The notes below the pieces were generated by a model. It ran no database searches, was not told the DNA's origin, and worked only from the letters and a program-made list of their open reading frames with translations. From Streptococcus mitis (lineage in GTDB: Bacteria > Bacillota > Bacilli > Lactobacillales > Streptococcaceae): a DNA stretch of 24,000 nt. Made by a program: the position numbers and the translations under genes. The DNA lies in assembly GCF_047465045.1 (NCBI RefSeq), contig NZ_JASHAR010000001.1:87758-111757 (forward strand), written 5' to 3'. Below, piece after piece: positions 351-21,168 of the stretch; the stretch's first letter is position 1; every line of letters begins with the position of its first letter.

Positions 351-1169
351 ATGAAGATTCAGACTACAAACTTAGGAAAAGGTGGCGGTGGTAAGACTAC
401 AGATACCTTTAATGAAGGGGATTGGTTGGCACGTGTTAAGGGGCTTAGAACACTACTAATTGATGGAGCTTGGGAATGTAATTTGACAAGAACATTTGAT
501 GTAAAATGCGAGAAAACTGTCTATGATATATTTACGACTGGAGAGTATGAGATTGTTCCAATATCAGAAAATCTCAGTTTGATTTGTGGTGATGAGCGTT
601 TGACAGATGAGCAGTTAGATCTTGCCAGTCGAAACAACAAGTATCTCCAGTTGTTTATGTGGTTTAGCGAACATTACGAAGAGTTAGAAGCACAATTTGA
701 TGTCATTCTGATTGATACGCACAATGATGAGAGTTTAGTTACAGCAAATTTTATAGCTGTATCAGATATTGTCTTGGCTGTTTCTGATGCCTCTCTTAAT
801 GGTTTTCGTGCCTGGTTATCTTTGAAAAATTTTGTAGATTTCATTAAGAGCGAAGCTATCGAAGTGATTACTAAGAAAAGCTATGTTAAAGCAGAACCTT
901 ATCTTATTGGAAATAAGATCAAGTACGTTGGAAACAATGTAACAGACACTTGTAAACAATTTTTAGAAGTTGTTGAAGAAGATCAGGCTTATCTGGGATC
1001 TATCCAGGAGAAAGAGCTCATGGCCAAGAGTCTTGTGATTAGTCAGAGTGTTTTTGAGCAGCATGAAGAGATGACAGCTAACCAACAAGAGACACATAAA
1101 AAGTTTTATGATAATATAAACTATGTATATGAAAATATTTTGAGTGTGTTAGAAGGAGAGGTAGCATGA
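351..1169 (+). CDS. parA: ParA/Soj-family partition ATPase (plasmid type Ib-like)
   Basis: N-terminal deviant Walker A LGKGGGGKTT, later hydrophobic-D motif ILIDTHND, ~270 aa. Strong RBS aaggaggg before the ATG. ATGA overlap with the next gene. Confidence 0.75.
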   Translation: MKIQTTNLGKGGGGKTTDTFNEGDWLARVKGLRTLLIDGAWECNLTRTFDVKCEKTVYDIFTTGEYEIVPISENLSLICGDERLTDEQLDLASRNNKYLQLFMWFSEHYEELEAQFDVILIDTHNDESLVTANFIAVSDIVLAVSDASLNGFRAWLSLKNFVDFIKSEAIEVITKKSYVKAEPYLIGNKIKYVGNNVTDTCKQFLEVVEEDQAYLGSIQEKELMAKSLVISQSVFEQHEEMTANQQETHKKFYDNINYVYENILSVLEGEVA

Positions 1170-1438
1170 CAGAGAATCGATTCGCACAAGTAAAACAAAC
1201 ATTCCAAAGTACACCAAAGAGAGAGAAGACCCCTTCGTCGAGGAAACAAAATCAGGAGGCTAGAAAGTCTCCTGAAAGCTATAACAAAAAGCAAAGATAT
1301 CCATTCTCTTTACATCATAATGTTCGATACGATATGTTAGATGCTTTAGTAGAGTATCACGGTGAAAAATCAGCTTCATCTTATCTCGAGAATCTGATTA
1401 TAAGAGAATGGGAAAAGATGGAGCGAAAGAAAAAATAG
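1166..1438 (+). CDS. Small basic protein with a C-terminal ribbon-helix-helix-like fold; candidate ParG/omega-like centromere-binding partner
   Basis: Translationally coupled to parA (ATGA overlap at 1166-1169). Basic, disordered N-terminus. The C-terminal pattern YPFSLH / VRYDMLDALVEYHG / SASSYLENLIIREW fits strand-helix-helix by eye. Confidence 0.5.
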   Translation: MTENRFAQVKQTFQSTPKREKTPSSRKQNQEARKSPESYNKKQRYPFSLHHNVRYDMLDALVEYHGEKSASSYLENLIIREWEKMERKKK

Positions 1439-1464
1439 CGTTCCATAAGAAAGGAAATGCAGCA

Positions 1465-1845
1465 ATGAAATACTTATCAAATCTATCAGATATTCCTGAA
1501 TTTTCTTCAGCAGCAATAGATTCAGGACAAATTGTCATCCCTCGTCCAATAATAGACAACCCACAGTTCAATGATTTGAAGAGTAGTGGAATTTTTCTCT
1601 ACATGCTTTTATTAAATCGTTTAAGAGCTGCAGTTGACTTTGAATTAAAAGGATATGATGAAAATGGAAATACTTTTGTATGTTACCCTATAGAGGAGCT
1701 AATGGAGTCTCTTCAATCAGGTAAAAGTAAAGTGATTTCTTTGAAAAAGAAGCTAAAGAATCATGGTTTAATTGAAGAAGTACGCCAAGGATCCAATCTA
1801 CCCAATAGAATTTACCTAACAGATGAGATTTTAAAATATTACTGA
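1465..1845 (+). CDS. RepA_N-domain (Firmicute plasmid replication-initiator N-terminal domain) protein, short form
   Basis: Pattern IPRPIIDNPQF..LKSSGIFLYMLLLNRL..DENGNTFVCYPIEELMESL..SKVISLKKKLKNHGLIEEVRQGSNLPNRIYL matches my memory of the RepA_N winged-helix signature. I place the start at ATG 1465 (RBS aaagga) rather than the ORF-track start at 1408. At 126 aa it is much shorter than full Rep proteins. Confidence 0.55.
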   Translation: MKYLSNLSDIPEFSSAAIDSGQIVIPRPIIDNPQFNDLKSSGIFLYMLLLNRLRAAVDFELKGYDENGNTFVCYPIEELMESLQSGKSKVISLKKKLKNHGLIEEVRQGSNLPNRIYLTDEILKYY

Positions 1846-1862
1846 TGAAGTAGGAGGAATCT

Positions 1863-2192
1863 ATGATGATTTTCATTGATATTAAAAGACTTGTTCAGCT
1901 GTTCTTTATTTTTATCGGAGCTATAGCAATCTATGTGTTCTATAAAACATTTGGGCTTAGTATGGTGTTTATAATTGTTTTAGGATTGGCCGTTTTAAGA
2001 TTCGCTCCAGCTTTCCTTCCAGTTGTATTATTACTGTATTTGGGACTTCACTTTACAGGTGGTTTTTCCTTTATTGCAGATGGAATTGTGACGGTTTTAT
2101 GGAGTATTATTTTGATTCCTATGGGGATAGCTACTATTGAAATGAGCAAATCCTATTTGAGTAAGAAAGAGAAACCCTGGTATGACAAGTAA
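1863..2192 (+). CDS. Small integral membrane protein (3-4 predicted TM helices), function unknown
   Basis: Strong RBS aggagg before the ATG. The sequence is almost wholly hydrophobic. A terminator follows directly. Confidence 0.55.
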   Translation: MMIFIDIKRLVQLFFIFIGAIAIYVFYKTFGLSMVFIIVLGLAVLRFAPAFLPVVLLLYLGLHFTGGFSFIADGIVTVLWSIILIPMGIATIEMSKSYLSKKEKPWYDK

Positions 2193-2223
2193 GAGTTTAT
2201 CTGAAAAGATAGGCTCTTTTTTT
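2193..2223 (+). terminator. Rho-independent terminator
   Basis: gagtttatct-GAAA-agataggctc forms a 10-bp stem (two G-U pairs) with a GAAA loop, followed by a run of 7 T. Confidence 0.7.
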
Positions 2224-2301
2224 GTCAGAACAAAGGATTATTTGAACATTCAGGTCAAAATTTATTAAAATAAGCGTAATTTTAATAAGGGAGGATTCTG
2301 A

Positions 2302-3639
2302 ATGGCTTTCTTTGATGAGAGAGAATTAAAAAATCAATTGCTGTTTCAAAATGCAAAAGAATTTTATAACTTTGTTTCTAGGTATGATGAGGAGATGATT
2401 CCGGTCATGAAAGCAAAGGGATATACCTGTATTCATTCAATGGAGCGAACCGTCGCTTTTACATTTGGAGAGTTTACTTTCAGAAGAAGACGTTGGAAAA
2501 AGGGAGATCATTGGGTCATTCCAGTAGATGAAAAGTTAGGGCTCCAGAAGAACGTCCGCTTCTCCTGGGAATTTATGTATCAGGTGGCCAAATTATCTAC
2601 TTTGATGCCATATGATAAAGTAACTCAGGTGATCCAATTGACTTATCACATCTCTATCACAAAGCCAATTGTGGTAAAAGCTGTAAAAATCTGTGAGAAG
2701 TTATTGGAGGAAAGAGAAGGCTATCGATATTATGAAGAGAATAGAGAGGTTAGCAAAAGAAAAGCCCAGGTTATTTATATTGAGGGTGATGGTGTGATGG
2801 TTAAAGCACGTGACACACAAAAGGATAATAAACATTATGATTTATCCCATTTTGTAGTTCATACAGGAAGCCAGAAAGTTGGCAGCAATCGATTTGAACT
2901 CCAGGACAAAAAAGAATTTATTGGCCTTGACAACCGATTAGTGAGGGAGCAGGTGATCGATTATCTATTCAATAATTATGAAGTTACGGATAGGACTTTA
3001 TTGATTACGAACTCTGATGGAGGTCATGGATATACACCCTATGTTTTCAAAGAGATTGCGAAGGTTTTGCGAATTAAACGCCACGAACATTTCTGGGATG
3101 AGTACCATGTAAATAAAGAGTTAAAGAATTATCTAAAATTTTACTCTGAAGATCTATTAGAGAGAGCTTTCCAGGCGATTAAGCAACATGATAAGCAGTT
3201 AATGAGAACTGTCCTAGATACGACCGAAAGTTATATCGAGACAGAAGAAGAACAAGAGTTATTTGAGAAGTTCAAGAGTAAAATATTGAGAAATTTCCAA
3301 TATACTAAACCAGCCGAACAAAGGGGATTCAGTCATGCAGGAATCGGGATAATGGAGAGTCAGCATCGTAAGGTCACTTATAGAATGAAAAAAAGAGGAA
3401 TGTACTGGACTCTTGCTGGAGCTGAAACGATGAGTCGGATAATTGTTTTGAATTATGAGGATTCCTTGAGGGAACTATTCTTTGGCAACTGGAGAGAGGA
3501 CTATGAAAAATTTATTTCTTTAGAGGAAGTTTCTGCTTATACCATTAAAAAAAGAATGAGTAAAACGGAAAAAGAAAATACATCTAGATATCAATGTTAC
3601 CCTGATAGTAAAAGATTATCTTACTTCCGAAAACAATAG
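2302..3639 (+). CDS. ISLre2 / UPF0236-family transposase (intact ORF)
   Basis: 445 aa with RBS gggagg. The segments RTVAFTFGEFTFRRRRW and YIEGDGVMV resemble conserved blocks I recall for ISLre2-family DDE transposases. I could not identify terminal inverted repeats. Confidence 0.55.
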   Translation: MAFFDERELKNQLLFQNAKEFYNFVSRYDEEMIPVMKAKGYTCIHSMERTVAFTFGEFTFRRRRWKKGDHWVIPVDEKLGLQKNVRFSWEFMYQVAKLSTLMPYDKVTQVIQLTYHISITKPIVVKAVKICEKLLEEREGYRYYEENREVSKRKAQVIYIEGDGVMVKARDTQKDNKHYDLSHFVVHTGSQKVGSNRFELQDKKEFIGLDNRLVREQVIDYLFNNYEVTDRTLLITNSDGGHGYTPYVFKEIAKVLRIKRHEHFWDEYHVNKELKNYLKFYSEDLLERAFQAIKQHDKQLMRTVLDTTESYIETEEEQELFEKFKSKILRNFQYTKPAEQRGFSHAGIGIMESQHRKVTYRMKKRGMYWTLAGAETMSRIIVLNYEDSLRELFFGNWREDYEKFISLEEVSAYTIKKRMSKTEKENTSRYQCYPDSKRLSYFRKQ

Positions 3640-4756: not shown

Positions 4757-7700
4757 AGGAAATCGAAATTCAGGGATTCAAGTCTTTTGCTGATAAGACC
4801 AAGGTCGTCTTTGACCAAGGTGTGACGGCAGTTGTTGGACCCAATGGATCTGGAAAGTCGAATATTACAGAAAGTCTGCGTTGGGCTTTGGGGGAGTCTA
4901 GTGTCAAGAGTCTCCGTGGGGGCAAGATGCCGGATGTCATCTTTGCTGGAACTGAAAGTCGCAAACCGCTCAATTATGCTTCTGTAGTTGTGACTCTGGA
5001 TAATCATGACGGATTTATCAAGGATGCAGGTCAAGAAATCAGGGTAGAACGTCATATCTACCGTAGTGGAGATAGCGAATACAAGATTGACGGCAAGAAA
5101 GTCCGTCTGCGTGATATTCATGATCTTTTCTTGGATACAGGTTTGGGACGAGATTCCTTCTCTATCATTTCCCAAGGGAAGGTTGAGGAGATTTTTAATT
5201 CCAAGCCTGAGGAACGCCGAGCTATTTTTGAAGAAGCTGCTGGAGTTTTGAAATACAAGACTCGTAGAAAAGAGACTGAGAGCAAATTGCAACAAACTCA
5301 GGATAATCTGGATCGTCTTGAAGACATTATCTACGAGTTGGATAATCAAATCAAACCTCTTGAGAAGCAAGCTGAGAATGCCCGTAAGTTTTTAGACTTG
5401 GAAGGTCAACGCAAGGCTATTTATTTAGATGTGCTGGTTGCTCAAATCAAGGAAAATAAGGCTGAACTAGACTCGACAGAAGAAGAGTTGACTCAGGTTC
5501 AGGAACTCTTGACGAGCTACTACCAAAAGCGTGAAAAATTAGAAGAAGAAAATCAAGCTCTTAAAAAGCAACGCCAAGATTTACAGGCTGAAATGTCCAA
5601 AGACCAAGGCAGTTTGATGGATTTGACCAGTCTGATTAGTGATTTAGAGAGAAAATTAGCCCTATCGAAACTGGAATCTGAGCAAGTAGCCCTGAATCAA
5701 CAGGAAGCACAAGCTCGTTTGGCTGCTTTGGAGGATAAGAGAAATTCACTCAGCAAAGAAAAATCTGATAAGGAAAGCTCTTTAGCCCTCTTAGAGGAAA
5801 ATCTAATCAAAAATAATCAAAAACTCAATCGTTTAGAAGCTGAATTACTGGCTTTTTCAGATGATCCTGATCAGATGATTGAGCTCTTGCGTGAACGCTT
5901 TGTGGCGCTTTTACAGGAAGAAGCGGATGTCTCAAACCAACTGACTCGTATTGAGAATGAGCTGGAAAATAGTCGTCAGATTTCTCAAAAACAAGCAGAT
6001 CAACTAGAAAAGCTGAAAGAACAGCTGGCTACAGCTAAAGAAAAGGCAAGTCAGCAAAGGAATGAGCTTGAAACTGCCAAGGAGCAGGTTCAGAAATTAT
6101 TGGCTGACTATCAAGTCTGTGCCAAGGAGCAAGAGGAGCAGAAAACTTCCTATCAAGCTCAACAGAGTCAACTCTTTGATCGTCTGGATAATCTCAAAAA
6201 CAAACAGGCTAGAGCCCAAAGTTTGGAAAATATCCTTAGAAATCACAGTAACTTTTATGCAGGTGTTAAGAGTGTTCTCCAAGAAAAAGATCGCCTTGGT
6301 GGGATTATTGGTGCAGTCAGTGAGCACCTGACTTTTGATGTGCATTATCAAACTGCCCTAGAGATTGCGCTTGGAGCTAGTAGTCAGCATATCATCGTAG
6401 AAGATGAAGAGTCGGCAACCAAGGCGATTGATTTCCTCAAACGAAATAGAGCTGGTCGTGCAACCTTCCTTCCTTTAACGACTATCAAGGCGCGTACGAT
6501 TTCTAGTCAGAATCAAGATGCTATTGCTGCAAGTCCAGGATTTCTGGGTATGGCAGATGAGCTGGTTACTTTCGATACTAGACTGGAAGCTATTTTCAAG
6601 AACTTGCTAGCTACGACGGCTATTTTTGACACCGTGGAGTATGCGCGTGAAGCTGCTCGACAAGTTCGTTATCAGGTTCGCATGGTGACATTGGATGGGA
6701 CAGAGCTGCGTACAGGTGGTTCCTATGCAGGTGGAGCCAATCGTCAGAATAATAGCATTTTCATCAAGCCAGAACTGGAACAATTACAAAAAGAAATTGC
6801 TGAAGAAGAAGCAAGCTTGCGTACAGATGAAGCGAGTTTGAAGAACTTGCAAGATGAGATGGTTTCATTGACAGAAAAGTTAGAAGCCATCAAATCTCAG
6901 GGAGAGCAAGCTCGTATCCAGGAGCAGGGCTTGTCCCTCGCTTATCAGCAGACCAGTCAGCAAGTTGAAGAACTGGAAACTCTTTGGAAACTCCAAGAAG
7001 AGGAATTAAATCGTCTTTCTGAGGGTGATTGGCAAGAGGATAAGGAAAAATGCCAAGAGCGCCTTACTACTATCGCCAGTGACAAGCAAAATCTGGAAGC
7101 TGAGATTGAAGAGATTAAGTCTAATAAAAACGCCATCCAAGAACGCTATCAAAACTTGCAGGAAGAGGTAGCACAAGCTCGCTTGCGTAAGACTGAACTG
7201 CAAGGACAAAAACGTTATGAAGTAGCTGATATTGAGCGTTTAGGCAAGGAATTGGACAATCTTGATCTTGAGCAAGAGGAAATCCAGCGCCTTCTTCAAG
7301 AAAAGGTTGATAATCTGGAGAAGGTTGATACAGAATTGCTCGGTCAACAGGCGGAAGAGGCCAAAACTCAGAAAATGAACCTCCAACAAGGTTTGATTCG
7401 CAAGCAGTTTGAGTTGGATGATATTGAGGGTCAGCTGGATGATATTGCCAGTCATTTGGACCAAGCTCGCCAGCAGAATGAAGAGTGGATTCGCAAGCAA
7501 ACTCGTGCTGAAGCCAAGAAAGAAAAGGTCAGCGAGCGCTTGCGCCATCTACAAAGTCAATTAACAGACCAGTACCAGATTAGCTATACTGAAGCTCTAG
7601 AAAAGGCGCATGAATTGGAAAATCTCAATCTGGCAGAGCAAGAGGTTAAGGATTTGGAGAAAGCTATTCGCTCACTGGGTCCTGTCAATTTAGACGCTAT

Positions 7701-8286
7701 TGACCAGTACGAAGAAGTTCACAATCGTCTGGATTTCCTAAATAGCCAACGAGATGATATTTTGTCAGCGAAAAATCTGCTCCTTGAAACCATTACAGAA
7801 ATGAACGATGAAGTCAAGGAACGATTTAAATCAACCTTTGAAGCTATTCGTGAGTCCTTTAAAGTGACCTTTAAGCAGATGTTTGGTGGAGGTCAGGCTG
7901 ACTTGATTTTGACTGAAGGAGACCTGCTGACAGCTGGGGTTGAGATTTCTGTCCAACCACCAGGCAAGAAAATCCAGTCTCTCAACCTTATGAGTGGTGG
8001 GGAAAAAGCCCTATCGGCTCTTGCTTTGCTTTTCTCCATTATTCGTGTCAAGACCATTCCATTTGTTATCTTGGATGAGGTAGAGGCTGCGCTAGACGAA
8101 GCCAATGTTAAACGTTTTGGAGATTATCTCAACCGCTTTGATAAGGACAGTCAATTTATTGTCGTAACCCACCGTAAGGGAACCATGGCAGCGGCTGATT
8201 CCATCTATGGAGTGACCATGCAGGAATCAGGTGTTTCGAAGATTGTTTCGGTTAAGTTAAAAGATTTGGAAGAAACAGTAGACTAG
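4747..8286 (+). CDS. smc: Chromosome condensation/segregation protein SMC
   Basis: 1179 aa. Walker [10 protein letters not shown], long E/Q/K-rich coiled coils, a central hinge, signature [15 protein letters not shown] and Walker [13 protein letters not shown]. Its start overlaps the rnc stop by 10 nt. Confidence 0.95.
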
Positions 8287-8296
8287 TTACCAAACG

Positions 8297-8325
8297 ATAG
8301 CATCTCTTAGGGGATGCTATTTTTT
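8297..8325 (+). terminator. Rho-independent terminator after smc
   Basis: atagcatc(tc)-ttag-(gg)gatgctat stem followed by a T-run. Confidence 0.7.
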
Positions 8326-8414
8326 AAAACTAACATCTTGAATGATTTTTTAAGGTCAGTTCAGGGGCAAAAAATGACATTTGGGATTTCCTTTTAGCGA
8401 AAAGGCTTTCTCTA

Positions 8415-8423
8415 TGATATAAT
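8415..8423 (+). promoter_or_regulatory. Extended -10 (TGaTATAAT) placed 6 nt before the ribF ATG; leaderless configuration
   Basis: TATAAT at 8418-8423, agtttc, ATG at 8430. There is no Shine-Dalgarno sequence. Confidence 0.5.
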
Positions 8424-8429
8424 AGTTTC

Positions 8430-9365
8430 ATGATTACAACAGTACCTATAAAAAACGCAAAAGACATCGCAGTACCTGATAAAACAGTTCTTGTATTAGG
8501 CTATTTTGACGGTATTCATAAGGGACATCAGAAGCTTTTTGAAGTAGCTAGCAAGGCTTCTATGAAAGATTATCTACCAGTTGTCGTGATGACCTTTACA
8601 GAGTCCCCTAAGCTTGCTTTGCAACCTTACAAGCCAGAATTAATGCTTCATATTGTCAGCCATGAAGAACGAGAACATAAGATGAAATGGCATGGAGTAG
8701 AGGCTCTTTTCTTACTTGACTTTAGTAGTAAATTTGCTAGTTTAACGGGTCAAGAGTTCTTTGATACTTATGTTAGAGCATTAAAACCAGCGATTATTGT
8801 AGCGGGATTTGATTACACGTTTGGTTCTGATAAGAAAACTGCAGATGATCTGAAGGACTACTTTGATGGAGAAATCATCATTGTTCCTCCTGTTGAGGAT
8901 GAAAAGGGGAAAATTAGTTCTACTCGTATTCGTCAAGCTATTCTTGATGGGGATGTCAGAGAAGCTGGTCATTTACTTGGCACTCCTCTACCATCACGCG
9001 GAATGGTTGTTCATGGCAATGCTCGTGGACGGACTATCGGTTACCCAACAGCAAACTTAGTTTTAAGAGATCGAACCTATATGCCAGCAGATGGTGTTTA
9101 CGTAGTCGATATTGAAGTTCAGCGTAAAAGATATCGTGGAATGGCGAGTGTCGGGAAAAATGTTACTTTCGATGGAGAAGAGCCACGTTTTGAAGTCAAT
9201 ATTTTTGATTTTTCAGATGACATTTACGGTGAAACAGTCATTGTCTACTGGCTGGACCGTGTCCGTGAAATGGTCAAATTTGACTCCGTTGATGAACTGG
9301 TAGACCAACTCCAGAAAGATGAAGAAATTGCTCGGAATTGGAAGGATGGATATTCTGTCATTTAA
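8430..9365 (+). CDS. ribF: Bifunctional riboflavin kinase / FMN adenylyltransferase
   Basis: N-terminal GYFDGIHKGHQ adenylyltransferase motif and a C-terminal riboflavin kinase block (GRTIGYPTANL, FEVNIFDF). 311 aa. Confidence 0.9.
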   Translation: MITTVPIKNAKDIAVPDKTVLVLGYFDGIHKGHQKLFEVASKASMKDYLPVVVMTFTESPKLALQPYKPELMLHIVSHEEREHKMKWHGVEALFLLDFSSKFASLTGQEFFDTYVRALKPAIIVAGFDYTFGSDKKTADDLKDYFDGEIIIVPPVEDEKGKISSTRIRQAILDGDVREAGHLLGTPLPSRGMVVHGNARGRTIGYPTANLVLRDRTYMPADGVYVVDIEVQRKRYRGMASVGKNVTFDGEEPRFEVNIFDFSDDIYGETVIVYWLDRVREMVKFDSVDELVDQLQKDEEIARNWKDGYSVI

Positions 9366-9516: not shown

Positions 9517-10290
9517 ATGCAAACGCAAGAAGAAATGAATGTACTGGTACCTGAAAAATTAGCAGAAATTGAGCGTGATTTCGATGTCACAGTTTTGTGG
9601 GCTATTGAGTCTGGTAGTCGTGCTTGGGGCTTTGAGTCTCCCGATAGTGACTTTGATGTACGATTTATCTACAAACACAAGCAAGATTTTTATCTCCGTT
9701 TGAATGAACAGCGCGATGTTATCGAACTACCAATTGACGATACTTGGGATGTGAGTGGCTGGGATTTAGACAAGACTTTAAAACTTTTTTATAAGTCTAA
9801 TCCTACACTATTTGAATGGTTACAGTCACCAATTGTTTATCAACAAACGGATTTTATCGAGCACATACGTCCACTTGCAACCCAGTATTTTTCTGAGAAA
9901 AAAATGCCGTACCATTACTTGAACACTGCAAGAACTCAAATGAATAAGTATCTTTCAGGAGATAAGGTCAAACCTAAAAAGTATTTCTATGCGCTGCGTC
10001 CTATTTTGGCTTGTCGCTGGATTGAAAAATACCATTCTGTTCCACCGATTTTGTTTGATGATTTGGTCAAAGAATTACTTCCGTCTCAAATGCAGGAGCA
10101 TGTTTCAAGCTTGCTAGACATTAAGATAAATGGGCCTGAAGGTATGGAAATTGATCCGATAATGCCAATCCAGCACTACATCATCAAAAACATCAAAGAG
10201 CTGGATGCATACGTTCAAAGTGTTACCGAGGTGAAGAAAGACTGGAAAGCTCTAAATCAATTTTTTCTTGAAGAATTAGGGCATGACTGA
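9517..10290 (+). CDS. Pol-beta-superfamily nucleotidyltransferase (COG3541 / PF10127 RlaP-like, by eye)
   Basis: GSRAWGFESPDSDFDVRFIY gives the G-S ... D-x-D minimal nucleotidyltransferase signature. A helical C-terminal region follows. 257 aa. Confidence 0.6.
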   Translation: MQTQEEMNVLVPEKLAEIERDFDVTVLWAIESGSRAWGFESPDSDFDVRFIYKHKQDFYLRLNEQRDVIELPIDDTWDVSGWDLDKTLKLFYKSNPTLFEWLQSPIVYQQTDFIEHIRPLATQYFSEKKMPYHYLNTARTQMNKYLSGDKVKPKKYFYALRPILACRWIEKYHSVPPILFDDLVKELLPSQMQEHVSSLLDIKINGPEGMEIDPIMPIQHYIIKNIKELDAYVQSVTEVKKDWKALNQFFLEELGHD

Positions 10291-10298
10291 GGTTGTTT

Positions 10299-11351
10299 AT
10301 GGGTAAATGGACATGTAAATGCGGGCAAGCGATGAACGACCATAGGTCGCCCGATTCAAATGCTTATTCAGTTTACTCGGATGAGTTGTTAGTAGAAATC
10401 ATGAATAAAAAAGATGGTAATGATTCAATTTCTTATGAAGACATTTCAGAGGCTTCATTTTATATGTGGAAGTGTCCTGAATGCGGTAGTTTCATGGTTT
10501 TTGGCGAAGACGGAGATGGAGATCGCTTTACTTTTTATGAACGCCAAGAAGTTGAAAAGGTCGAGCCTCTCTTTGATCCGGATCAAGATTTAAATATCGT
10601 TGTTGTTGAGTTTCAGGAGGGAGCAAATGGCTATACTTATATCTGCGATGACCCAAATATCCATATTGGGCATGCAGTTATTGTCCCAGTAGGAAAGGAA
10701 AATACTGAAAAAACTGCTTTAGTTGTGCAGAAGTATCATGCCTTACCAAAGGATATCACTTTTCCTGTTGAAAAGTTAAAACGTGTCATCCGTAGGTATT
10801 CACATTTCGACCCAATCACTTCGAAAAACGTTTGTAGAAATTTAATTAAGCTTAGAAGAATTTTTGATGCTTGCTCTAATAACAATAAACCTGCGCCTCA
10901 GCAAACATATTACGTTATCAAAACTCCCTTAGGCTATTTTTGGTTAGAATTAAATGGAGTTCCGATTACAATGAAAATCACACAGATTCAAGTCAAAGAT
11001 AAAAAGTACCAAGTAGATAGCGCCCTTTATATAAAGCCTTCAGAGATTAACTGTAGAAGATTCTATGAACTAGAGTTGTGTGCTGATTTTGATATTGATG
11101 CCTCGAGATGGATCGATGTTCTCTCGGATGAAAACGTTTGGGGCAATAGCTGGGAACTAAATGGCCTTCAATTTGGTATTACTGCAGGGGAGTCTCCAGA
11201 ATTTGAAGACGAAGTTGTAGCAAGAAAGTATAGTCGTGTCCCACTTTATTATGACTGGCACCCTGAATTTGAAGATTATTATGGATTCAGCTTAGCTTGG
11301 AAAAAATACGAATCTGATAGCGATTTGTCGATAGATTTTTATACAACATAA
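10299..11351 (+). CDS. Uncharacterised multidomain protein with an N-terminal CxC...CxxC zinc-ribbon-like motif
   Basis: CKC (residues 6-8 from ATG 10299) and CPEC about 55 aa later. ATG 10299 has a GAGG 6 nt upstream that overlaps the nucleotidyltransferase stop codon. The ORF-track TTG start at 10293 is less likely. I recognise no family for the rest. Confidence 0.55.
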   Translation: MGKWTCKCGQAMNDHRSPDSNAYSVYSDELLVEIMNKKDGNDSISYEDISEASFYMWKCPECGSFMVFGEDGDGDRFTFYERQEVEKVEPLFDPDQDLNIVVVEFQEGANGYTYICDDPNIHIGHAVIVPVGKENTEKTALVVQKYHALPKDITFPVEKLKRVIRRYSHFDPITSKNVCRNLIKLRRIFDACSNNNKPAPQQTYYVIKTPLGYFWLELNGVPITMKITQIQVKDKKYQVDSALYIKPSEINCRRFYELELCADFDIDASRWIDVLSDENVWGNSWELNGLQFGITAGESPEFEDEVVARKYSRVPLYYDWHPEFEDYYGFSLAWKKYESDSDLSIDFYTT

Positions 11352-13478: not shown

Positions 13479-13862
13479 ATGATGGAACATAAAAAGATCG
13501 GTCAGGTTACTGACGAAGTAAAAGAAATTTTTAATATTGTTCTTGAAGCTAGTGATATCAAAGTTAACAAAGAAGGTTTAAGAAGTCATATGTTGAAACG
13601 GCATCATAATGACGTGATTCATCATATCGAAGATCTGGAACTTATACTAAGTAATCCAGATTTCGTTGGGGTCAATCCACGAGAGAAAGATGCTAGTTTT
13701 GAATATGTTAAAAGATTTGATGATAATGTTCTTGTTGCGATTAAGTTACATAAAAGTGGTGATTTCTTTTATGTTCCGACCATGTATCGTTTACAAGATT
13801 TCAAGTTACAAAGTCGTATTAAGTCTGGTAGATTGAGAAAGCTTGACAAAAAAAGTAGATAG
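13479..13862 (+). CDS. Small PBECR-like (phage-Barnase-EndoU-ColicinE5/D-RelE-like) putative nuclease
   Basis: 127 aa with RBS ggaggg. The layout (H-rich helix ..HMLKRHHNDVIHHIEDL.. then ILSNPDFVGVNPREKDASFEYVKRFDDNVLVAIKL...YVPTMYRL) resembles small PBECR-type proteins as I recall them. This is a by-eye call only. Confidence 0.35.
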   Translation: MMEHKKIGQVTDEVKEIFNIVLEASDIKVNKEGLRSHMLKRHHNDVIHHIEDLELILSNPDFVGVNPREKDASFEYVKRFDDNVLVAIKLHKSGDFFYVPTMYRLQDFKLQSRIKSGRLRKLDKKSR

Positions 13863-17183: not shown

Positions 17184-17199
17184 GGTAAATAATGAAATA

Positions 17200-17232
17200 A
17201 GCTTTGTTTTATAAAAGACAAGGCTTTTTTTT
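17200..17232 (+). terminator. Rho-independent terminator after the pspC-like gene
   Basis: agctttgtttt-ataa-aaagacaaggct stem (11 pairs including G-U) followed by a run of 8 T. Confidence 0.7.
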
Positions 17233-17236
17233 CATC

Positions 17237-17266
17237 TTGTCAGAATCTATGCCTAAATGGTATAAT
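17237..17266 (+). promoter_or_regulatory. Promoter of the three-gene island operon
   Basis: TTGTCA (17237-17242), 18-nt spacer, TGgTATAAT (17258-17266). It lies ~35 nt upstream of ATG 17301. Confidence 0.6.
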
Positions 17267-17300
17267 AAGCGTATAAAAATAATTTGACAGGAAATGTATT

Positions 17301-18935
17301 ATGGCTAATGAGAATGAGTTACTCGCATTACGATCATCAAATATTGAGATTGAATACGACGAATTGCTTAATTTAGAAAATTCTCTAGAAAATAATCTCA
17401 AAGATCTTATTAAAGATATAGAAAAAATTGATTTAGATAGGGAAAAATTACAAAATAATGAATACCTTCAAGAATCTATTGAGAATATAGTCTGGGAGCA
17501 AGTGCAACTTCAACTTGCTGCCCAAATTGGTGATGAGTTTATTAAAGAGAACAACGGACAAACCCTAGATTTACGAAAAGAAGCACATATACAAACTGCT
17601 GAAAACTTTGAAAAAGGTAAATTTGCAACCCATAATAGAGATGTTAATTATCAAGAAAGATATGCTAAATGGCAAGATAACTTTACTACTAATAAAGATG
17701 GCGAAAGAGTTCTTAAAAGTGATGCTCGTGATTTCTTTGATAAAGGTAGAGACAAAGGTTCAGGAGCAGTTCATAAAGACCATACGGTTTCTATAAAGGA
17801 ACAATTAAATGATGTTGAAATGGCAACATTTTTCTCAAAAGAACAAGTTAAAGAGTTTGCTAATAGTTCTAAAAATCTACATGATTTAGATGCATCTGCT
17901 AATATGTCCAAGGGCGATAAAACTATGACTGAATTTTTGAATTCAGAAAGAGATGGATTAAAGCCTGAAGAGCGATTTAATATTGATAGAAAACAGTTAG
18001 AAAAAGATGACCGAGAGGCTAGGGAAGAACTTCAAAAAAGGAAACAAGAAAATAAAGATACTGCTATAAAATCAGGTAAAAAATCACGACGCGATGAGGC
18101 ATTAAAAATTTCCGGAAAAGCTTTGAAAGCAGTGCTTTTACAGTTATTATCAGAATTTTTGCGAGAATTGATTTCTAAATTTATCTCTTGGCTAAAAGAT
18201 ACAGAAAGAAACTTATCGACTTTTATTGATAAAATAAAAGAGGCTATCATATCTTTTGTAAATAACTTAGCAAATCATGTATTAAATGTCGGTAAATCTG
18301 TAGTTACAATGATTGCGTCTGCAATAGTTGGACCTGTAATTAATACAGTTCTTAAAGCTTGGACATTTATACACCAAGGTTGGAAATCTTTGAAAGAAGC
18401 AATAGATTATATAAAGAATCCTGAAAATAAAGATAAAAGCCTTGATATTATGATGTTAGAGGTTGGAAAAATTATTGTTGCGGGTTTAACAGCTACAGGT
18501 GCAATTGTAGTTGGGGAAGCTTTAGGAGCATCCCTCACAGCAAGTTTTCCAGTTTTGGCTATTTCAATACCACTTTTGGGAACAATCGGTAGCGTCATTG
18601 GAACATTTATGGGAGCAACTTTATCAGGAATTATTGGCGCTTTCGTATTAAAAATGATTGATCAGCAAATTGTCAATAAACAGATTACTGAATTAAGTTC
18701 TAAGAAAATTGATCAAAATAATGAAGTGTTAGTAATCAAAGATCAATTACTAGATGTAAAGAGCATAAAGCTTCAAGTAGAAAAAGATTCTGTTATCAAT
18801 ACTATTAAGGAAAGACATGATATGGCTGCTTCAATAATGAAAGAAAAGTTATCAGATATTTTTACAGAATCTACAAGAGACGATAAAAGTGACTTTGATG
18901 AGATTGATAGTTTATTACAAGAATTATTAGATTAG
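17301..18935 (+). CDS. Island gene A: 544-aa coiled-coil protein with an HNH/His-Me-finger-like motif and a glycine-zipper multi-TM block; no family recognised
   Basis: N-terminal heptad-like acidic region. The motif is HKDH (aa 158-161), then N192, then N201-x-x-K-G-x-K. A Lys/Arg-rich linker follows. The hydrophobic Gly/Ala/Ser-rich block spans aa ~333-453 (e.g. GLTATGAIVVGEALGASL, LLGTIGSVIGTFMGATLSGIIGAF). The tail is an acidic C-terminal coiled coil. Confidence 0.7.
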   Translation: MANENELLALRSSNIEIEYDELLNLENSLENNLKDLIKDIEKIDLDREKLQNNEYLQESIENIVWEQVQLQLAAQIGDEFIKENNGQTLDLRKEAHIQTAENFEKGKFATHNRDVNYQERYAKWQDNFTTNKDGERVLKSDARDFFDKGRDKGSGAVHKDHTVSIKEQLNDVEMATFFSKEQVKEFANSSKNLHDLDASANMSKGDKTMTEFLNSERDGLKPEERFNIDRKQLEKDDREAREELQKRKQENKDTAIKSGKKSRRDEALKISGKALKAVLLQLLSEFLRELISKFISWLKDTERNLSTFIDKIKEAIISFVNNLANHVLNVGKSVVTMIASAIVGPVINTVLKAWTFIHQGWKSLKEAIDYIKNPENKDKSLDIMMLEVGKIIVAGLTATGAIVVGEALGASLTASFPVLAISIPLLGTIGSVIGTFMGATLSGIIGAFVLKMIDQQIVNKQITELSSKKIDQNNEVLVIKDQLLDVKSIKLQVEKDSVINTIKERHDMAASIMKEKLSDIFTESTRDDKSDFDEIDSLLQELLD

Positions 18936-18945
18936 GGAGATAAAT

Positions 18946-19674
18946 ATGGAAGAAGAAGTATTTGAGCAAGAGCAAGAACAAGAAACAATTGAAATAAACA
19001 TTAGAAAACATGATTTCGATGAAGCGAAAGAGCATCTGAAAGAGTTTGCTGAACAAAGTCAAGATGAATTGTATTTTGATACAGTTAGAACTCATGAAGA
19101 CTTCTTTGGTTTTGAATTTGCTGAACATGGGGTTACTGGTAAAGAGTTTAATACTTTAGTTGAACAAACTCAAAATTACATTTCAAAATTTTATGATAAT
19201 CAACAAACACTTATTGAAGAATTTGGTCAAGTTTATAAAGCTTTAGAAGCTCTTGATAAAGGTCATATTCAAGCAATTCTTTCTTCTGTAGCAGCAATTG
19301 ATCATACAAATAAAAAAATATTAAAAGAACAAGTACGTATTGATAAAACCATTGAGAAACAAAAAGCAACTCTAGTAGCTCTTAAGCAATTTAAAGAGAA
19401 ATTTAACGAAGAAAATAGCAAAAACTCTATCGAAAAACATGAGGTAATACTTTCTAAATTCAATGATAGACTTGTAAATCTAGAACAATTCGCAAGTACT
19501 CTTCCTTCAGAACCAGTTTCAAATACTGGAGAAATTGAGCAACTTAGGAGAGAATTGAACGAAAGTAAACAACAAATTCAATTTATTTCAAATCGCCTCC
19601 TAATAGTCTTTGTTGTTTCTGGAATTTCTATTGGTATGTTAGTGATTGCCTTGCTTTTCATGTTATTGAGGTAA
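18946..19674 (+). CDS. Island gene B: 242-aa acidic coiled-coil protein with a single C-terminal TM anchor (tail-anchored)
   Basis: RBS gggaga 5 nt before the ATG and only a 10-nt gap after gene A. The N-terminus is E/Q-rich. The only hydrophobic segment is LLIVFVVSGISIGMLVIALLFMLL at aa 218-241. Confidence 0.65.
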   Translation: MEEEVFEQEQEQETIEINIRKHDFDEAKEHLKEFAEQSQDELYFDTVRTHEDFFGFEFAEHGVTGKEFNTLVEQTQNYISKFYDNQQTLIEEFGQVYKALEALDKGHIQAILSSVAAIDHTNKKILKEQVRIDKTIEKQKATLVALKQFKEKFNEENSKNSIEKHEVILSKFNDRLVNLEQFASTLPSEPVSNTGEIEQLRRELNESKQQIQFISNRLLIVFVVSGISIGMLVIALLFMLLR

Positions 19675-19677
19675 GAT

Positions 19678-20799
19678 ATGTCAACTTCTCGAGATAAATT
19701 AATTTGTAGCGCAAAGAAATTAGACCTCTATTTTGGAAAAGAAAATAATTATCTGGATAAAGTAAATAATATTATAAAAAATCATACTGATACAAAATCA
19801 GTAGCAGAATTATATAAATCTATTTTTTTATTACAGCAAATTAACAAACGAAACAAGCTTACACCTTTATTAAAAGATTTATCTGATAATCTAGCTAGTT
19901 TCCTTGGATATACTTATCTATTTGATACTTTAGAAAAAGAGTTGAGTCACCAAAAGAAATCGTCTTTAGACGACCTTTTGGTGGAACTAAATCAGTTAGT
20001 AGGTTTAGAGAAGGTAAAAAAAGAAGTTAATCGTTTAATTATTTATCAAAAAGTTCAGTCAAAAAGGAAAGAGTCTGGCTTAAATATTCCTAAAAGAACT
20101 TTACACATGGCTTTTATGGGAAATCCAGGAACAGGAAAAACAACTGTTGCTAGAATTATTGGAAGAATGTACTACCAATTGGGACTTTTATCCAAAGGAC
20201 ATTTTATGGAAGTCTCCAGAACAGATTTAATTGCAGGTTACCAAGGACAAACTGCACTGAAAGTTAAAGATATCATAGAAAAGGCGAAAGGTGGAGTTCT
20301 CTTTATTGATGAGGCGTATAGTATTACTGAAAATGAAAATACTGATTCATATGGTCGAGAATGTTTAACAGAACTTACAAAGGCCTTAGAAGATGCACGA
20401 GATGATTTAATTGTTATTGTAGCTGGTTATACCGAACCAATGAACCATTTCTTTGAATCAAATCCTGGTTTGAAATCTCGATTTAATTATTTTATTAATT
20501 TTGAAAATTATTCTTCTACAGAATTGTTAGATATTTTTGAAACATTAGCAAGAAAAGACGACTACCATACAGATGACAAGCTGAAAGAAGTATTATTAAA
20601 TTATTTTAATGAAAAGTTAGAAAGTAATCTCACCAATTTTTCTAACGGTCGCTTTGTTCGAAATCTATATGAAGATTTAATAATGAATCAAGCTGTCCGA
20701 CTTAACCAAAGTGAAGCTGTGAGTTCAAAAGAATTAACTTTGTTGATTAAAGATGATTTTTGTATAAATGAAAATCGTTCTAGTGACATAGATTTATAA
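19678..20799 (+). CDS. Island gene C: AAA+ ATPase of the CbbX/SpoVK/EccA-C-terminal type with a unique ~100-aa N-terminal domain
   Basis: 3-nt gap after gene B, with the GAGG RBS inside the gene B 3' end. Motifs: L..LVGLEKVKKEV, Walker A GNPGTGKTT, Walker B VLFIDEAY, VIVAGY, NPGLKSRF and NGRFVRN. Confidence 0.8.
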   Translation: MSTSRDKLICSAKKLDLYFGKENNYLDKVNNIIKNHTDTKSVAELYKSIFLLQQINKRNKLTPLLKDLSDNLASFLGYTYLFDTLEKELSHQKKSSLDDLLVELNQLVGLEKVKKEVNRLIIYQKVQSKRKESGLNIPKRTLHMAFMGNPGTGKTTVARIIGRMYYQLGLLSKGHFMEVSRTDLIAGYQGQTALKVKDIIEKAKGGVLFIDEAYSITENENTDSYGRECLTELTKALEDARDDLIVIVAGYTEPMNHFFESNPGLKSRFNYFINFENYSSTELLDIFETLARKDDYHTDDKLKEVLLNYFNEKLESNLTNFSNGRFVRNLYEDLIMNQAVRLNQSEAVSSKELTLLIKDDFCINENRSSDIDL

Positions 20800-20871
20800 T
20801 CAAATGAAATAATGAATCTTCAAACTGTTTATGAATGTATTATTGACCGTTGCAGCTAATTTACGAATCTG

Positions 20872-20900
20872 AACCCTTGTATCTGCAAGGGTTTTCTTCT
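20872..20900 (+). terminator. Rho-independent terminator closing the island operon
   Basis: aacccttg-tatctg-caagggtt stem followed by the T-rich ttcttctt. Confidence 0.6.
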
Positions 20901-20951
20901 TACTTTCTTTTTATGGTAAAATATTTTTAATAAAATATCTACATTTCCCCC

Positions 20952-20994
20952 AATCTTACAAAAATGTAAGATTAAAGTCTCTTTTGTAAGATTA
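20952..20994. promoter_or_regulatory. BceR-type response-regulator operator: inverted repeat plus an extra half-site
   Basis: aatcTTACA-aaaa-TGTAAgatt (20952-20973) is a perfect 9-bp inverted repeat fitting the published TNACA-N4-TGTAA consensus for BceR-like regulators. tgtaagatta repeats at 20985-20994, exactly 20 bp later. The site is upstream of the BceAB-type genes. Confidence 0.6.
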
Positions 20995-21057
20995 GGTTAT
21001 GGCAAGCGGTCTTTTTTTGATGTAAACTAGACTCATAAAGAACAAAGGAGTAACATC

Positions 21058-21168
21058 ATGAAACAAATCTTACAGAAGAAAACAAGAAAACCAAGCCATA
21101 AAGATATCGAGCGCGTTCAGCTGGGATGCGCTATGATGCAAGAGACATTTCATTTGATGGGATATTAA
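21058..21168 (+). CDS. 36-aa upstream small ORF (MKQILQKKTRKPSHKDIERVQLGCAMMQETFHLMGY), function unknown
   Basis: My own translation. Strong RBS aaaggag 7 nt upstream. The stop lies 14 nt before the ABC ATPase start. It sits between the operator and the transporter genes. Confidence 0.35.
   Translation: MKQILQKKTRKPSHKDIERVQLGCAMMQETFHLMGY

Follow-up and report, generated by a model that had tools for sequence, protein, structure and literature searches.

The analysed DNA is a 24,000-nt stretch of the Streptococcus mitis contig NZ_JASHAR010000001.1 (assembly GCF_047465045.1, positions 87,758 to 111,757 of the forward strand), referred to below as the window. We describe three of its genes, here named A, B and C, which lie on the same strand between pspC and bceA (Table 1). 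A and B are separated by 10 nt, B and C by 3 nt. Shine-Dalgarno-like sites are located ahead of B (GGGAG) and just before the stop codon of B, upstream of C (GAGG). An initial annotation, made by a model from the letters alone, had reported a three-gene unit with these gaps and with ribosome-binding sites near the upstream stop codons, and its coordinates were exact. The G+C content (GC) of the three genes is 0.29-0.31, compared with 0.44 for tex, 0.41 for pspC and 0.43 for bceA; sprT also falls within 0.41-0.44. The initial counts for single 60-nt lines (18 and 20 G+C inside the unit, 26 and 30 in the flanking genes) were likewise exact, and the inserted islet that carries the trio is AT-richer than its flanks.

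Table 1. Coordinates of the trio, its islet and their predicted features (positions in the window)
Feature	Position	Strand	Details	Basis
Inserted islet	17188-20869	+	3,682 bp, GC 0.302; in place of ~55 bp of empty-site strains	BLASTN
Terminator-like hairpin and T-run	17199-17226	+	left islet end, in islet-specific DNA; now terminates pspC	
Sigma-70-type promoter candidate	17237-17266	+	TTGTCA, 18 nt, TATAAT, upstream TG; 11/12 matches	
Gene A	17301-18935	+	544 aa	open reading frame
HNH-like (ββα-Me) domain cassette	17658-18056	+	A residues ~120-252; two divergent allelic types in streptococci	
Codons of D160-H161	17778-17783	+	predicted catalytic Asp-His pair	conservation
Hydrophobic glycine-zipper membrane region of A	18297-18647	+	residues ~333-449; sequence GTIGSVIGTFMGATLSGIIGAF	hydropathy scan
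Acidic amphipathic C-terminal tail of A	18891-18932	+	…DFDEIDSLLQELLD; also on the x protein of four-gene variants	
Gene B	18946-19674	+	242 aa	open reading frame
Conserved N-terminal domain of B	19003-19395	+	residues ~20-150	conserved residues
C-terminal transmembrane anchor of B	19576-19671	+	one hydrophobic helix, ~211-242	hydropathy scan
Gene C	19678-20799	+	373 aa	open reading frame
Walker A of C	20119-20142	+	GNPGTGKT (K154)	sequence
Walker B of C	20296-20313	+	VLFIDE (E212)	sequence
Terminator hairpin used by the trio	20871-20894	+	ancestral backbone; pspC terminator in empty-site strains	

The ends of the islet were set by BLASTN against four empty-site loci (L085, L090, L092 and L093), which encode an identical PspC protein and lack the trio. 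Homology to the backbone stops at 17187, four bases past the stop codon of pspC, and restarts at 20870-20872. No terminal direct or inverted repeats, which would mark a transposon or integrase site, were found at the islet ends. The islet more likely entered these streptococci by flank-mediated homologous recombination.

Ten distinct contexts of the pspC-bceA junction with identical PspC were compared. The junction is empty in the four loci named above. In L084, L087 and L089 (~6378-9025) it holds a cassette of an ABC-ATPase and a DUF1430 membrane protein on the opposite strand, and in L086, L088 and L091 small unknown genes. Based on these varying contents, the junction is a polymorphic cargo hotspot. 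Genes of 65 and 186 aa, with no Pfam match on record, occupy it in further strains. A horizontally acquired islet, as the initial annotation had proposed, agrees with both the low GC and the presence of empty or otherwise filled junctions beside an identical PspC. The comparison of related strains that it had suggested showed a polymorphic and not a universally conserved locus.

The trio had also been credited with its own promoter and its own terminator. The promoter candidate is the best match of the region, but promoter-like sites are overall not more numerous than in shuffled sequence. Judged by its sequence, it is a plausible promoter of the trio. The terminator had to be reassigned: because homology resumes at 20870 and the same hairpin directly follows pspC in strains lacking the trio, this hairpin belongs to the backbone. 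The islet brings a candidate promoter of its own and a replacement terminator for pspC, but not its own 3' terminator.

Further observations concern the right flank. Between the trio terminator and bceA, a 15-nt inverted repeat (CCCAATCTTACAAAA / TTTTGTAAGATTAGG) is found at 20949-20996. It looks like a BceR-type operator of the bceAB promoter, in which case bceAB would be regulated apart from the trio. The same interval contains a 36-aa open reading frame (21058-21168) that is called as a gene in other strains too. In Streptococcus parasanguinis (L026 6341-7985 and L039 5912-7556) the trio is placed between a BceRS-like two-component system and bceAB, and the open reading frame of the BceS-like histidine kinase stops 16 nt before A. 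Compared with S. mitis, the left flank of the trio is wholly different and the right flank is the same, which may be due either to preferred insertion ahead of bceAB or to joint transfer with it.

Distribution and predicted proteins of the trio

An exhaustive search for A (E <= 1e-3) returned at least 397 representative clusters at 50% identity, and a scan of one genome per species gave 80 A loci. In the Bacillota these belong to mitis-group and parasanguinis streptococci, Paenibacillus, Clostridium, Lachnospiraceae, Eisenbergiella, Eubacterium and Ruminococcus; elsewhere they were found in Treponema and in Prevotella, Phocaeicola, Muribaculaceae and Porphyromonadaceae. Among the 71 loci with at least 3.5 kb of DNA downstream of A, 69 carry a C homologue within 6 kb, and a B homologue between A and C was detected by tblastn in 67. 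Outside the streptococci the C homologues are 49-61% identical to C of the window. Two layouts were observed, A-B-C and a four-gene form A-x-B-C with a small additional protein x, and the order A-(x)-B-C is kept in Streptococcus, Lactococcus plasmids, Clostridia, Paenibacillus, Treponema, Prevotella, Phocaeicola and Muribaculaceae. Co-occurrence of the triad, which the initial annotation had listed as a check, was therefore borne out by these counts: A, B and C are one co-inherited module across Bacillota, Bacteroidota and Spirochaetes.

Only two A loci with ample downstream DNA have neither B nor C. In one of them (L073, uncultured Clostridiales) only short open reading frames follow A, and this locus may have decayed. 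The other is located on a Paraclostridium plasmid (L003).

Several copies of the module are carried by mobile DNA. Two Lactococcus plasmids bear the four-gene form, with A 34%, B 29% and C 54% identical to the window proteins. On one plasmid, pUC073A, the module adjoins a type I restriction-modification system and copies of IS982. In another setting the module, with a small helix-turn-helix (HTH) gene ahead of it, is the terminal cargo of an element that bears two large serine recombinases and also encodes a family-A DNA polymerase and a PD-(D/E)xK nuclease; contigs differ from each other in the far flank. The distribution is patchy and horizontally mobile, with presence/absence polymorphism. 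The trio had no match in 50,697 phage genomes and two matches in 2.9 million viral contigs, and no informative PHROG was obtained. In view of this near-absence from phage genomes and viral contigs, a phage origin of the trio was rejected.

Protein A consists of an N-terminal coiled coil, an HNH-like domain, a long helix, glycine-zipper membrane helices, a C-terminal coiled coil and an acidic tail. In an alignment of 42 A sequences, reaching down to ~25% identity, conservation is at least 90% at D160, H161, N188, N192 and N201 and complete at K204. When the HNH domain was aligned separately (31 sequences), the H, two N and the K were invariant. The His-Me/HNH-like motif that the initial annotation had noticed is thus near-invariant across the family and is centred on H161, with D160 before it. 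AlphaFold2 modelled residues 90-260 of A with confidence, and the isolated domain reached a predicted local distance difference test score (pLDDT) of 89 and a predicted template modelling score of 0.81. In this model a strand ends in D160-H161, a second strand spans residues 193-197 and a helix of residues 198-204 bears N201 and K204. This strand-strand-helix order corresponds to a ββα-metal topology. Long helices dominate the rest of the A model.

The domain model was compared with the PDB by Foldseek. The best match had a non-significant E-value of 0.31; HNH domains made up 15 of the 21 top matches, led by those of GeoCas9, ThermoCas9, SaCas9, NmeCas9 and NbaCas9, together with the C-terminal nuclease of SspE and Gme HNH. 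HNH or GmrSD_C proteins also predominated among the named viral matches. When PDB sequences were searched with a domain profile, a GmrSD-type restriction enzyme was matched (7p9k, E = 8e-4), aligned on the D-H...N-L...N-x-x-K motif. Of 31 members of the A family, Pfam recognised HNH_4 in six and GmrSD_C in five (best E = 4e-4), and divergent members carry a Cas9-like signature, D-x-Y-T-G-K ... D-H-V. Taken together, the motif, the model and these matches indicate that A likely carries an HNH-type nuclease domain, with no single significant score behind it.

The hydropathy scan predicted three to four hydrophobic helices in A with a GxxxG-rich block at ~395-450, in line with the Gly-zipper membrane block of the initial annotation. 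In the same 42 sequences, the glycines G427 and G443 of this block are at least 90% conserved. The predicted HNH motif is on the cytoplasmic side of this glycine-zipper membrane anchor. A pore-toxin or ExbB fold was considered for A and rejected: the full-length model gave only helix-driven PDB matches, all non-significant (E >= 0.1), among them condensin, the alpha-pore-forming toxins AhlB, SmhB and MakA, and ExbB. The labels 'cation diffusion facilitator family transporter' and 'gas vesicle protein' found on A homologues were also dismissed, as they have no Pfam or NCBIfam support.

The acidic tail of A is shared with the x protein. Tails from ~38 loci roughly follow the pattern (F/L)(D/E)x(I/M/L)xxxLxxLL. 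The x protein is 93-146 aa long, has an N-terminal membrane helix and resembles the last membrane helix and the C-terminus of A (E = 6e-7). The same terminal peptide on two membrane proteins suggests a common reader. CbbX and EccA act on terminal peptides of their substrates. By analogy with these two ATPases, C would be the obvious candidate for the reader of the A/x tail.

Protein B has a conserved N-terminal domain, a variable coiled-coil spacer and a C-terminal membrane anchor. The initial annotation had described it as an acidic coiled coil held in the membrane by one C-terminal helix. The helix was recovered, with a hydrophobic C-terminal anchor in 35 of 37 B-position genes, but B is more than an acidic coiled coil, because its N-terminal domain is globular and conserved. 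Near-invariant residues of this domain are F24, H61-x-V-T-G-x-E-x-N69, Y97 and L103-D-K-x-(H/Y)-I108. Its profile found no family in Pfam or PDB sequences and returned only coiled-coil noise such as Mce4_CUP1. B proteins are 209-753 aa long, apart from a single outlier (1,579 aa). The outlier gene (L081, 9709-14448, Ihuprevotella massiliensis) is ~7 times the streptococcal length and has no predicted C-terminal anchor; it either is a fusion or has an extremely extended coiled-coil spacer.

Protein C combines a family-specific helical N-domain (residues ~1-100) with an AAA+ module and AAA_lid_6 (Pfam PF00004, 5e-19; PF17866, 2e-15). The NCBIfam models SpoVK (1e-83), EccA (2e-68) and CbbX (2e-67) matched far better than FtsH (3e-9), and among PDB sequences CbbX (1e-53) and EccA1 (3e-45) ranked above VCP-like proteins (6e-11). 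By sequence, C is a classic AAA+ protein of the CbbX/SpoVK/EccA clade with intact motifs, as had been proposed. It is not an equivalog of any of the three: its scores stay below the cut-offs (280 versus 423 bits for SpoVK, 232 versus 467 and 228 versus 459 for the other two), and no sporulation, Rubisco or ESX genes were found in the neighbourhoods examined. In addition, C has an NPGLKSRF segment and a CbbX-like GYxGxT segment, which by its likeness to CbbX is taken to be pore loop 1. By analogy, C is expected to engage a terminal peptide of a specific partner protein and so remodel it. An MIT-like domain in C found no support, since the N-domain profile matched only a designed repeat protein among PDB sequences. 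The residues singled out earlier for mutation, H161 of A and K154 and E212 of C, were correctly placed.

Cassette exchange, gene neighbours and alternative functions

Comparison of streptococcal loci revealed that the HNH domain of A is exchanged as a cassette. In L012, L015 and L019, A is 86-100% identical to A of the window outside residues ~120-252 and only 23-46% identical inside, which is the HNH domain. Conversely, S. parasanguinis L026 carries an HNH cassette of the window type (82-96%) in an A that is otherwise 36-76% identical. Thus the HNH cassette types are exchanged independently of the remaining A, B and C, within and between streptococcal species. B and C are ~95% identical across the two cassette types, and no neighbour gene co-varies with them. 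Both types retain the catalytic residues. Exchange of an effector domain with preservation of its active site is as expected from an arms race. Separately, the membrane region of A (18297-18596, residues ~282-432) also occurs in two divergent forms among streptococci (comparison of the window with L011, L020, L026 and L039). These forms show 46-63% identity, compared with 73-100% in loci of the same type, and are spread independently of the HNH cassette type.

We pooled and surveyed 150 proteins whose genes lie at most three genes away from the module in ~38 non-streptococcal loci. The commonest neighbour family was WYL (nine proteins), several of them with a WCX domain and an N-terminal HTH. 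After addition of homology-found cases, 12 of the 41 non-streptococcal loci, as a raw count, have an HTH-WYL-WCX regulator beside the module (ten are Pfam-verified). The regulator gene often lies on the same strand immediately upstream, 4-29 nt away. In the P0312 contigs (a Prevotella sp. metagenome-assembled genome according to NCBI) the WYL regulator is positioned just downstream of the module. Defence islands are known to be regulated by HTH-WYL-WCX proteins of the BrxR/CapW type. Within three genes of the module, single loci encode a Pycsar pair, AbiLi, AriA, a type II restriction endonuclease and mad2. Further neighbours are four large serine recombinases and two relaxase sets (relaxase, MobC and NikA). 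The WYL/BrxR-like regulators, the defence and mobile neighbours and the swapping of HNH cassettes together give circumstantial support for a defence function.

Cassette swapping is also a property of polymorphic toxins. Accordingly, the trio could be an interbacterial or intracellular toxin, with A as polymorphic nuclease and pore-former, an EccA-like C that helps delivery or insertion, and B as immunity protein or scaffold; or it could serve as an addiction cassette for mobile elements. Glycine zippers are a common feature of bacteriocin-like proteins, and C shares its clade with EccA, an ATPase of type VII secretion. However, A has no signal peptide and no LXG, WXG100 or Rhs-type delivery domain, and neither an EccC/EssC ATPase nor WXG100 or ESX core genes were found among the Pfam families of the 150 flanking proteins or in the annotated contigs. 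The swapped cassette of A is internal and not C-terminal, and no immunity gene co-varies with it, B and C being nearly identical across cassette types. The same architecture is found in diderm Bacteroidota and Spirochaetes and in monoderm Bacillota, which argues against a dedicated envelope-spanning export route. A toxin or addiction role is consistent with module copies on plasmids and recombinase elements and with the ABC plus DUF1430 cassette as alternative cargo at the same streptococcal hotspot. In view of the points raised against it, we regard this role as unlikely.

The streptococcal flanks raise a different question. The S. mitis trio is placed between a PspC-domain gene and bceAB, and in S. 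parasanguinis it directly follows the BceS-like kinase gene and precedes bceAB. A and B could polymerise on damaged membrane and be disassembled by C, in the manner of ESCRT-III/Vps4 or PspA, beside PspC and BceAB. The A model with its long helices fits such a role in membrane stress or remodelling, and the acidic amphipathic A/x tail resembles ESCRT-III C-terminal motifs that are read by AAA+ partners. Yet the junction is polymorphic, the trio is missing from related strains whose PspC and BceAB are identical, and a PspC or a close BceAB homologue adjoins none of the ~40 non-streptococcal loci; three of these have weak ABC-ATPase similarity (25.9-33.3% identity) in their flanks. In the window, a terminator and the bceA-proximal inverted repeat separate the trio from bceAB. 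Sequence searches gave no PspA/IM30 or Snf7 Pfam match in A or B and no MIT-like match in the N-domain of C. A stress function would also leave the near-invariant HNH motif and its cassette swapping without a role, and the WYL regulators and the mobile-element contexts point elsewhere. This explanation is therefore improbable.

The mobilisation genes and serine recombinases in some flanks, the module copies on mobilizable plasmids and the predicted membrane anchoring of the nuclease would be compatible with a membrane DNA-processing machine of non-immune function, for example in conjugation or natural transformation, with the HNH domain as a nickase. The streptococcal hosts are naturally competent. 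Against this, mobilisation genes are adjacent in only two of ~38 loci and most copies lie on chromosomes, away from genes for conjugation or competence. Control of the WYL/BrxR type and diversification of cassettes are more typical of immunity. We therefore give this possibility little weight, and it overlaps with a defence function, since the exclusion of incoming DNA is in practice defence.

Comparison with known systems and a proposed defence function

The initial annotation knew of no described system of this composition. This was largely upheld: no named system with the composition of the trio was found in PADLOC v2, NCBIfam 20, Pfam, PHROGs or the full-text literature, and the trio is undescribed in recent defence surveys of lactococci and Streptococcus thermophilus. 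The statement needs one amendment, because A is a distant relative of a catalogued protein, PDC-M40B of the PADLOC candidate PDC-M40. Gene A matches the PDC-M40B profile over most of its length (E = 9e-11), as does the Lactococcus homologue (2e-12), although the match of A is weak (39 bits, ~27% identity over part of the protein). The relative on the Paraclostridium plasmid L003 matches at 6e-88 and shares the D-H...N...N...K motif and hydrophobic C-terminal helices; its gene adjoins a Sau3AI-family restriction endonuclease and a glycine-zipper protein. In contrast to the trio, this locus, the one strong locus examined, has no AAA+ protein and no B homologue. PDC-M40A was not detected for B, C or any neighbour, nor in L003. 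By these profile matches, the trio is not a member of PDC-M40.

The predicted nuclease domain resembles those of GmrSD/BrxU (DUF1524) and Cas9 (HNH_4) in having D-H at the end of a strand, N-L, and N-x-x-K on the next helix, as well as in the absence of zinc-binding cysteines. The likeness is limited to ~70 residues with marginal scores. Unlike these enzymes, A lacks a DUF262 NTPase partner domain, a RuvC domain and a guide RNA, and its domain is embedded in a coiled-coil membrane protein. C matches CbbX, SpoVK and EccA over the whole ATPase module, including intact Walker motifs; it differs from EccA in its own ~100-residue N-domain in place of the TPR domain, and from all three in being unlinked to genes of Rubisco, sporulation or type VII secretion.

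Septu (PtuA and PtuB) resembles the trio in its general logic, a mobile and patchily distributed operon that encodes both an NTPase and an HNH nuclease effector. In the trio, however, the NTPase is an AAA+ unfoldase and not ABC/AAA_21, the predicted nuclease is integral to the membrane, and a tail-anchored third component is obligatory. With PADLOC, no PtuA match was obtained in the trio, and the only PtuB match was noise on B (E = 0.2). Zorya and Kiwa have membrane components with long coiled coils combined with DNA-targeting activity and are thought to act near the entry point of phage DNA. The trio differs from them in having no MotAB-like ZorAB and no KwaAB homology, in that the predicted nuclease itself is the membrane protein, and in the inclusion of an AAA+ unfoldase. 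ZorA matches in PADLOC were restricted to the coiled-coil tail of the Lactococcus B homologue (E ~2e-4), and B of the window gave none.

The only published echo of the composition that we found is an add-on to CoCoNuT systems of type III-A (PMC11090510), in which a SpoVK-family AAA+ protein is encoded beside a bacteriocin-like glycine-zipper protein. The authors read this pair as a possible stand-alone defensive add-on (PMC11090510). Compared by description only, the ATPase there has tandem AAA+ domains, the C-terminal one alone being active, and no HNH domain or tail-anchored partner is described. The parts of the trio are of familiar kinds (HNH effector, NTPase, membrane component) and are not categorically new. 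Their predicted combination, an integral-membrane HNH nuclease with a tail-anchored partner and a remodelling AAA+ protein, is an undescribed architecture.

The trio is a genuine module with clear limits and a wide distribution, for which a defensive role is plausible. We consider it an uncharacterised, mobile anti-phage or anti-plasmid defence module whose effector would be the membrane-anchored HNH nuclease, with a probability of about 0.6. On the inner side of the membrane, A and B would assemble into a complex that keeps the nuclease inactive. A cue of infection or DNA entry would be sensed at the membrane, and the conserved head of B on its coiled-coil stalk of variable length would be the best sensor candidate. 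C, acting as a hexameric threading ATPase like CbbX and EccA, would engage a terminal peptide, most plausibly the acidic A/x tail, and remodel or extract a subunit, so that the nuclease is licensed or reset. The active HNH domain would then cut invading DNA near its entry point. Unrestrained activation would lead to cleavage of host DNA and, together with pore formation by the glycine zippers, would abort the infection. In many species a BrxR-type WYL repressor would control expression. Much as the initial annotation had hypothesised, an A-B complex would be assembled, reset or triggered by C and would lead to abortive infection.

A more specific version can be formulated, which we hold to be possible but doubtful. 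Here a membrane-built HNH nuclease would be checked by its tail-anchored partner, and the AAA+ protein would toggle it by tail pulling or subunit extraction, thereby licensing cleavage where phage or plasmid DNA enters. The module would be a bacterial counterpart of Msp1/Vps4-style remodelling, and its swappable HNH cassettes would evade phage-encoded nuclease inhibitors.

Several points weigh against a defence module. A of the window matches no Pfam or NCBIfam model, including no Pfam HNH, and every single similarity score for the HNH domain is marginal (Foldseek 0.31, profile 8e-4, and Pfam 4e-4 in divergent members only). The membrane region of A is poorly modelled by AlphaFold2 (pLDDT <50 over residues 326-449). 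The roles given to B, C and the C-terminal tail are drawn by analogy. Most flanking genes are ordinary housekeeping genes, with defence neighbours in a minority of loci, and the immediate streptococcal neighbours belong to envelope stress and peptide resistance (pspC and bceAB; bceRS in S. parasanguinis). PDC-M40, the nearest catalogued relative of A, is itself a computational candidate for which no published test was found in the literature.

If the trio is a defence system, a widespread module would be added to the bacterial immune repertoire, present in oral and gut streptococci, Clostridia, Bacteroidota, spirochaetes and dairy Lactococcus plasmids. The trio bears on how membrane-associated defences sense infection, and on roles of CbbX/SpoVK/EccA-type ATPases beyond Rubisco activation, sporulation and type VII secretion. 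The allelic HNH cassettes of mitis-group streptococci offer a natural experiment for finding phage-encoded inhibitors, and the copies on Lactococcus plasmids may matter for the phage resistance of dairy starter cultures.

Other observations in the window

Three further stretches of the window were noted. A variable islet at 9517-11351, between ribF and the DUF1980/ArsP_1 genes, encodes an RlaP-family nucleotidyltransferase (Pfam 6e-84) and a 352-aa protein without Pfam match; L091 carries it, and L087, L090 and L092 lack it. Upstream of tex, a gene at 13479-13862 encodes a 127-aa protein with a PBECR3/PBECR2 nuclease domain (barnase/EndoU/colicin-E5/RelE-like). This gene is also variable in related strains, being absent from L089-L091 and replaced by a DUF1919 gene in L088. 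Finally, a low-GC stretch at 351-3639, upstream of rnc and smc, contains a ParA-like ATPase (AAA_31), a fragment of a RepA_N replication initiator, a 109-aa unknown protein and a UPF0236 transposase-like gene, and looks like the remnant of a plasmid or an integrative element.

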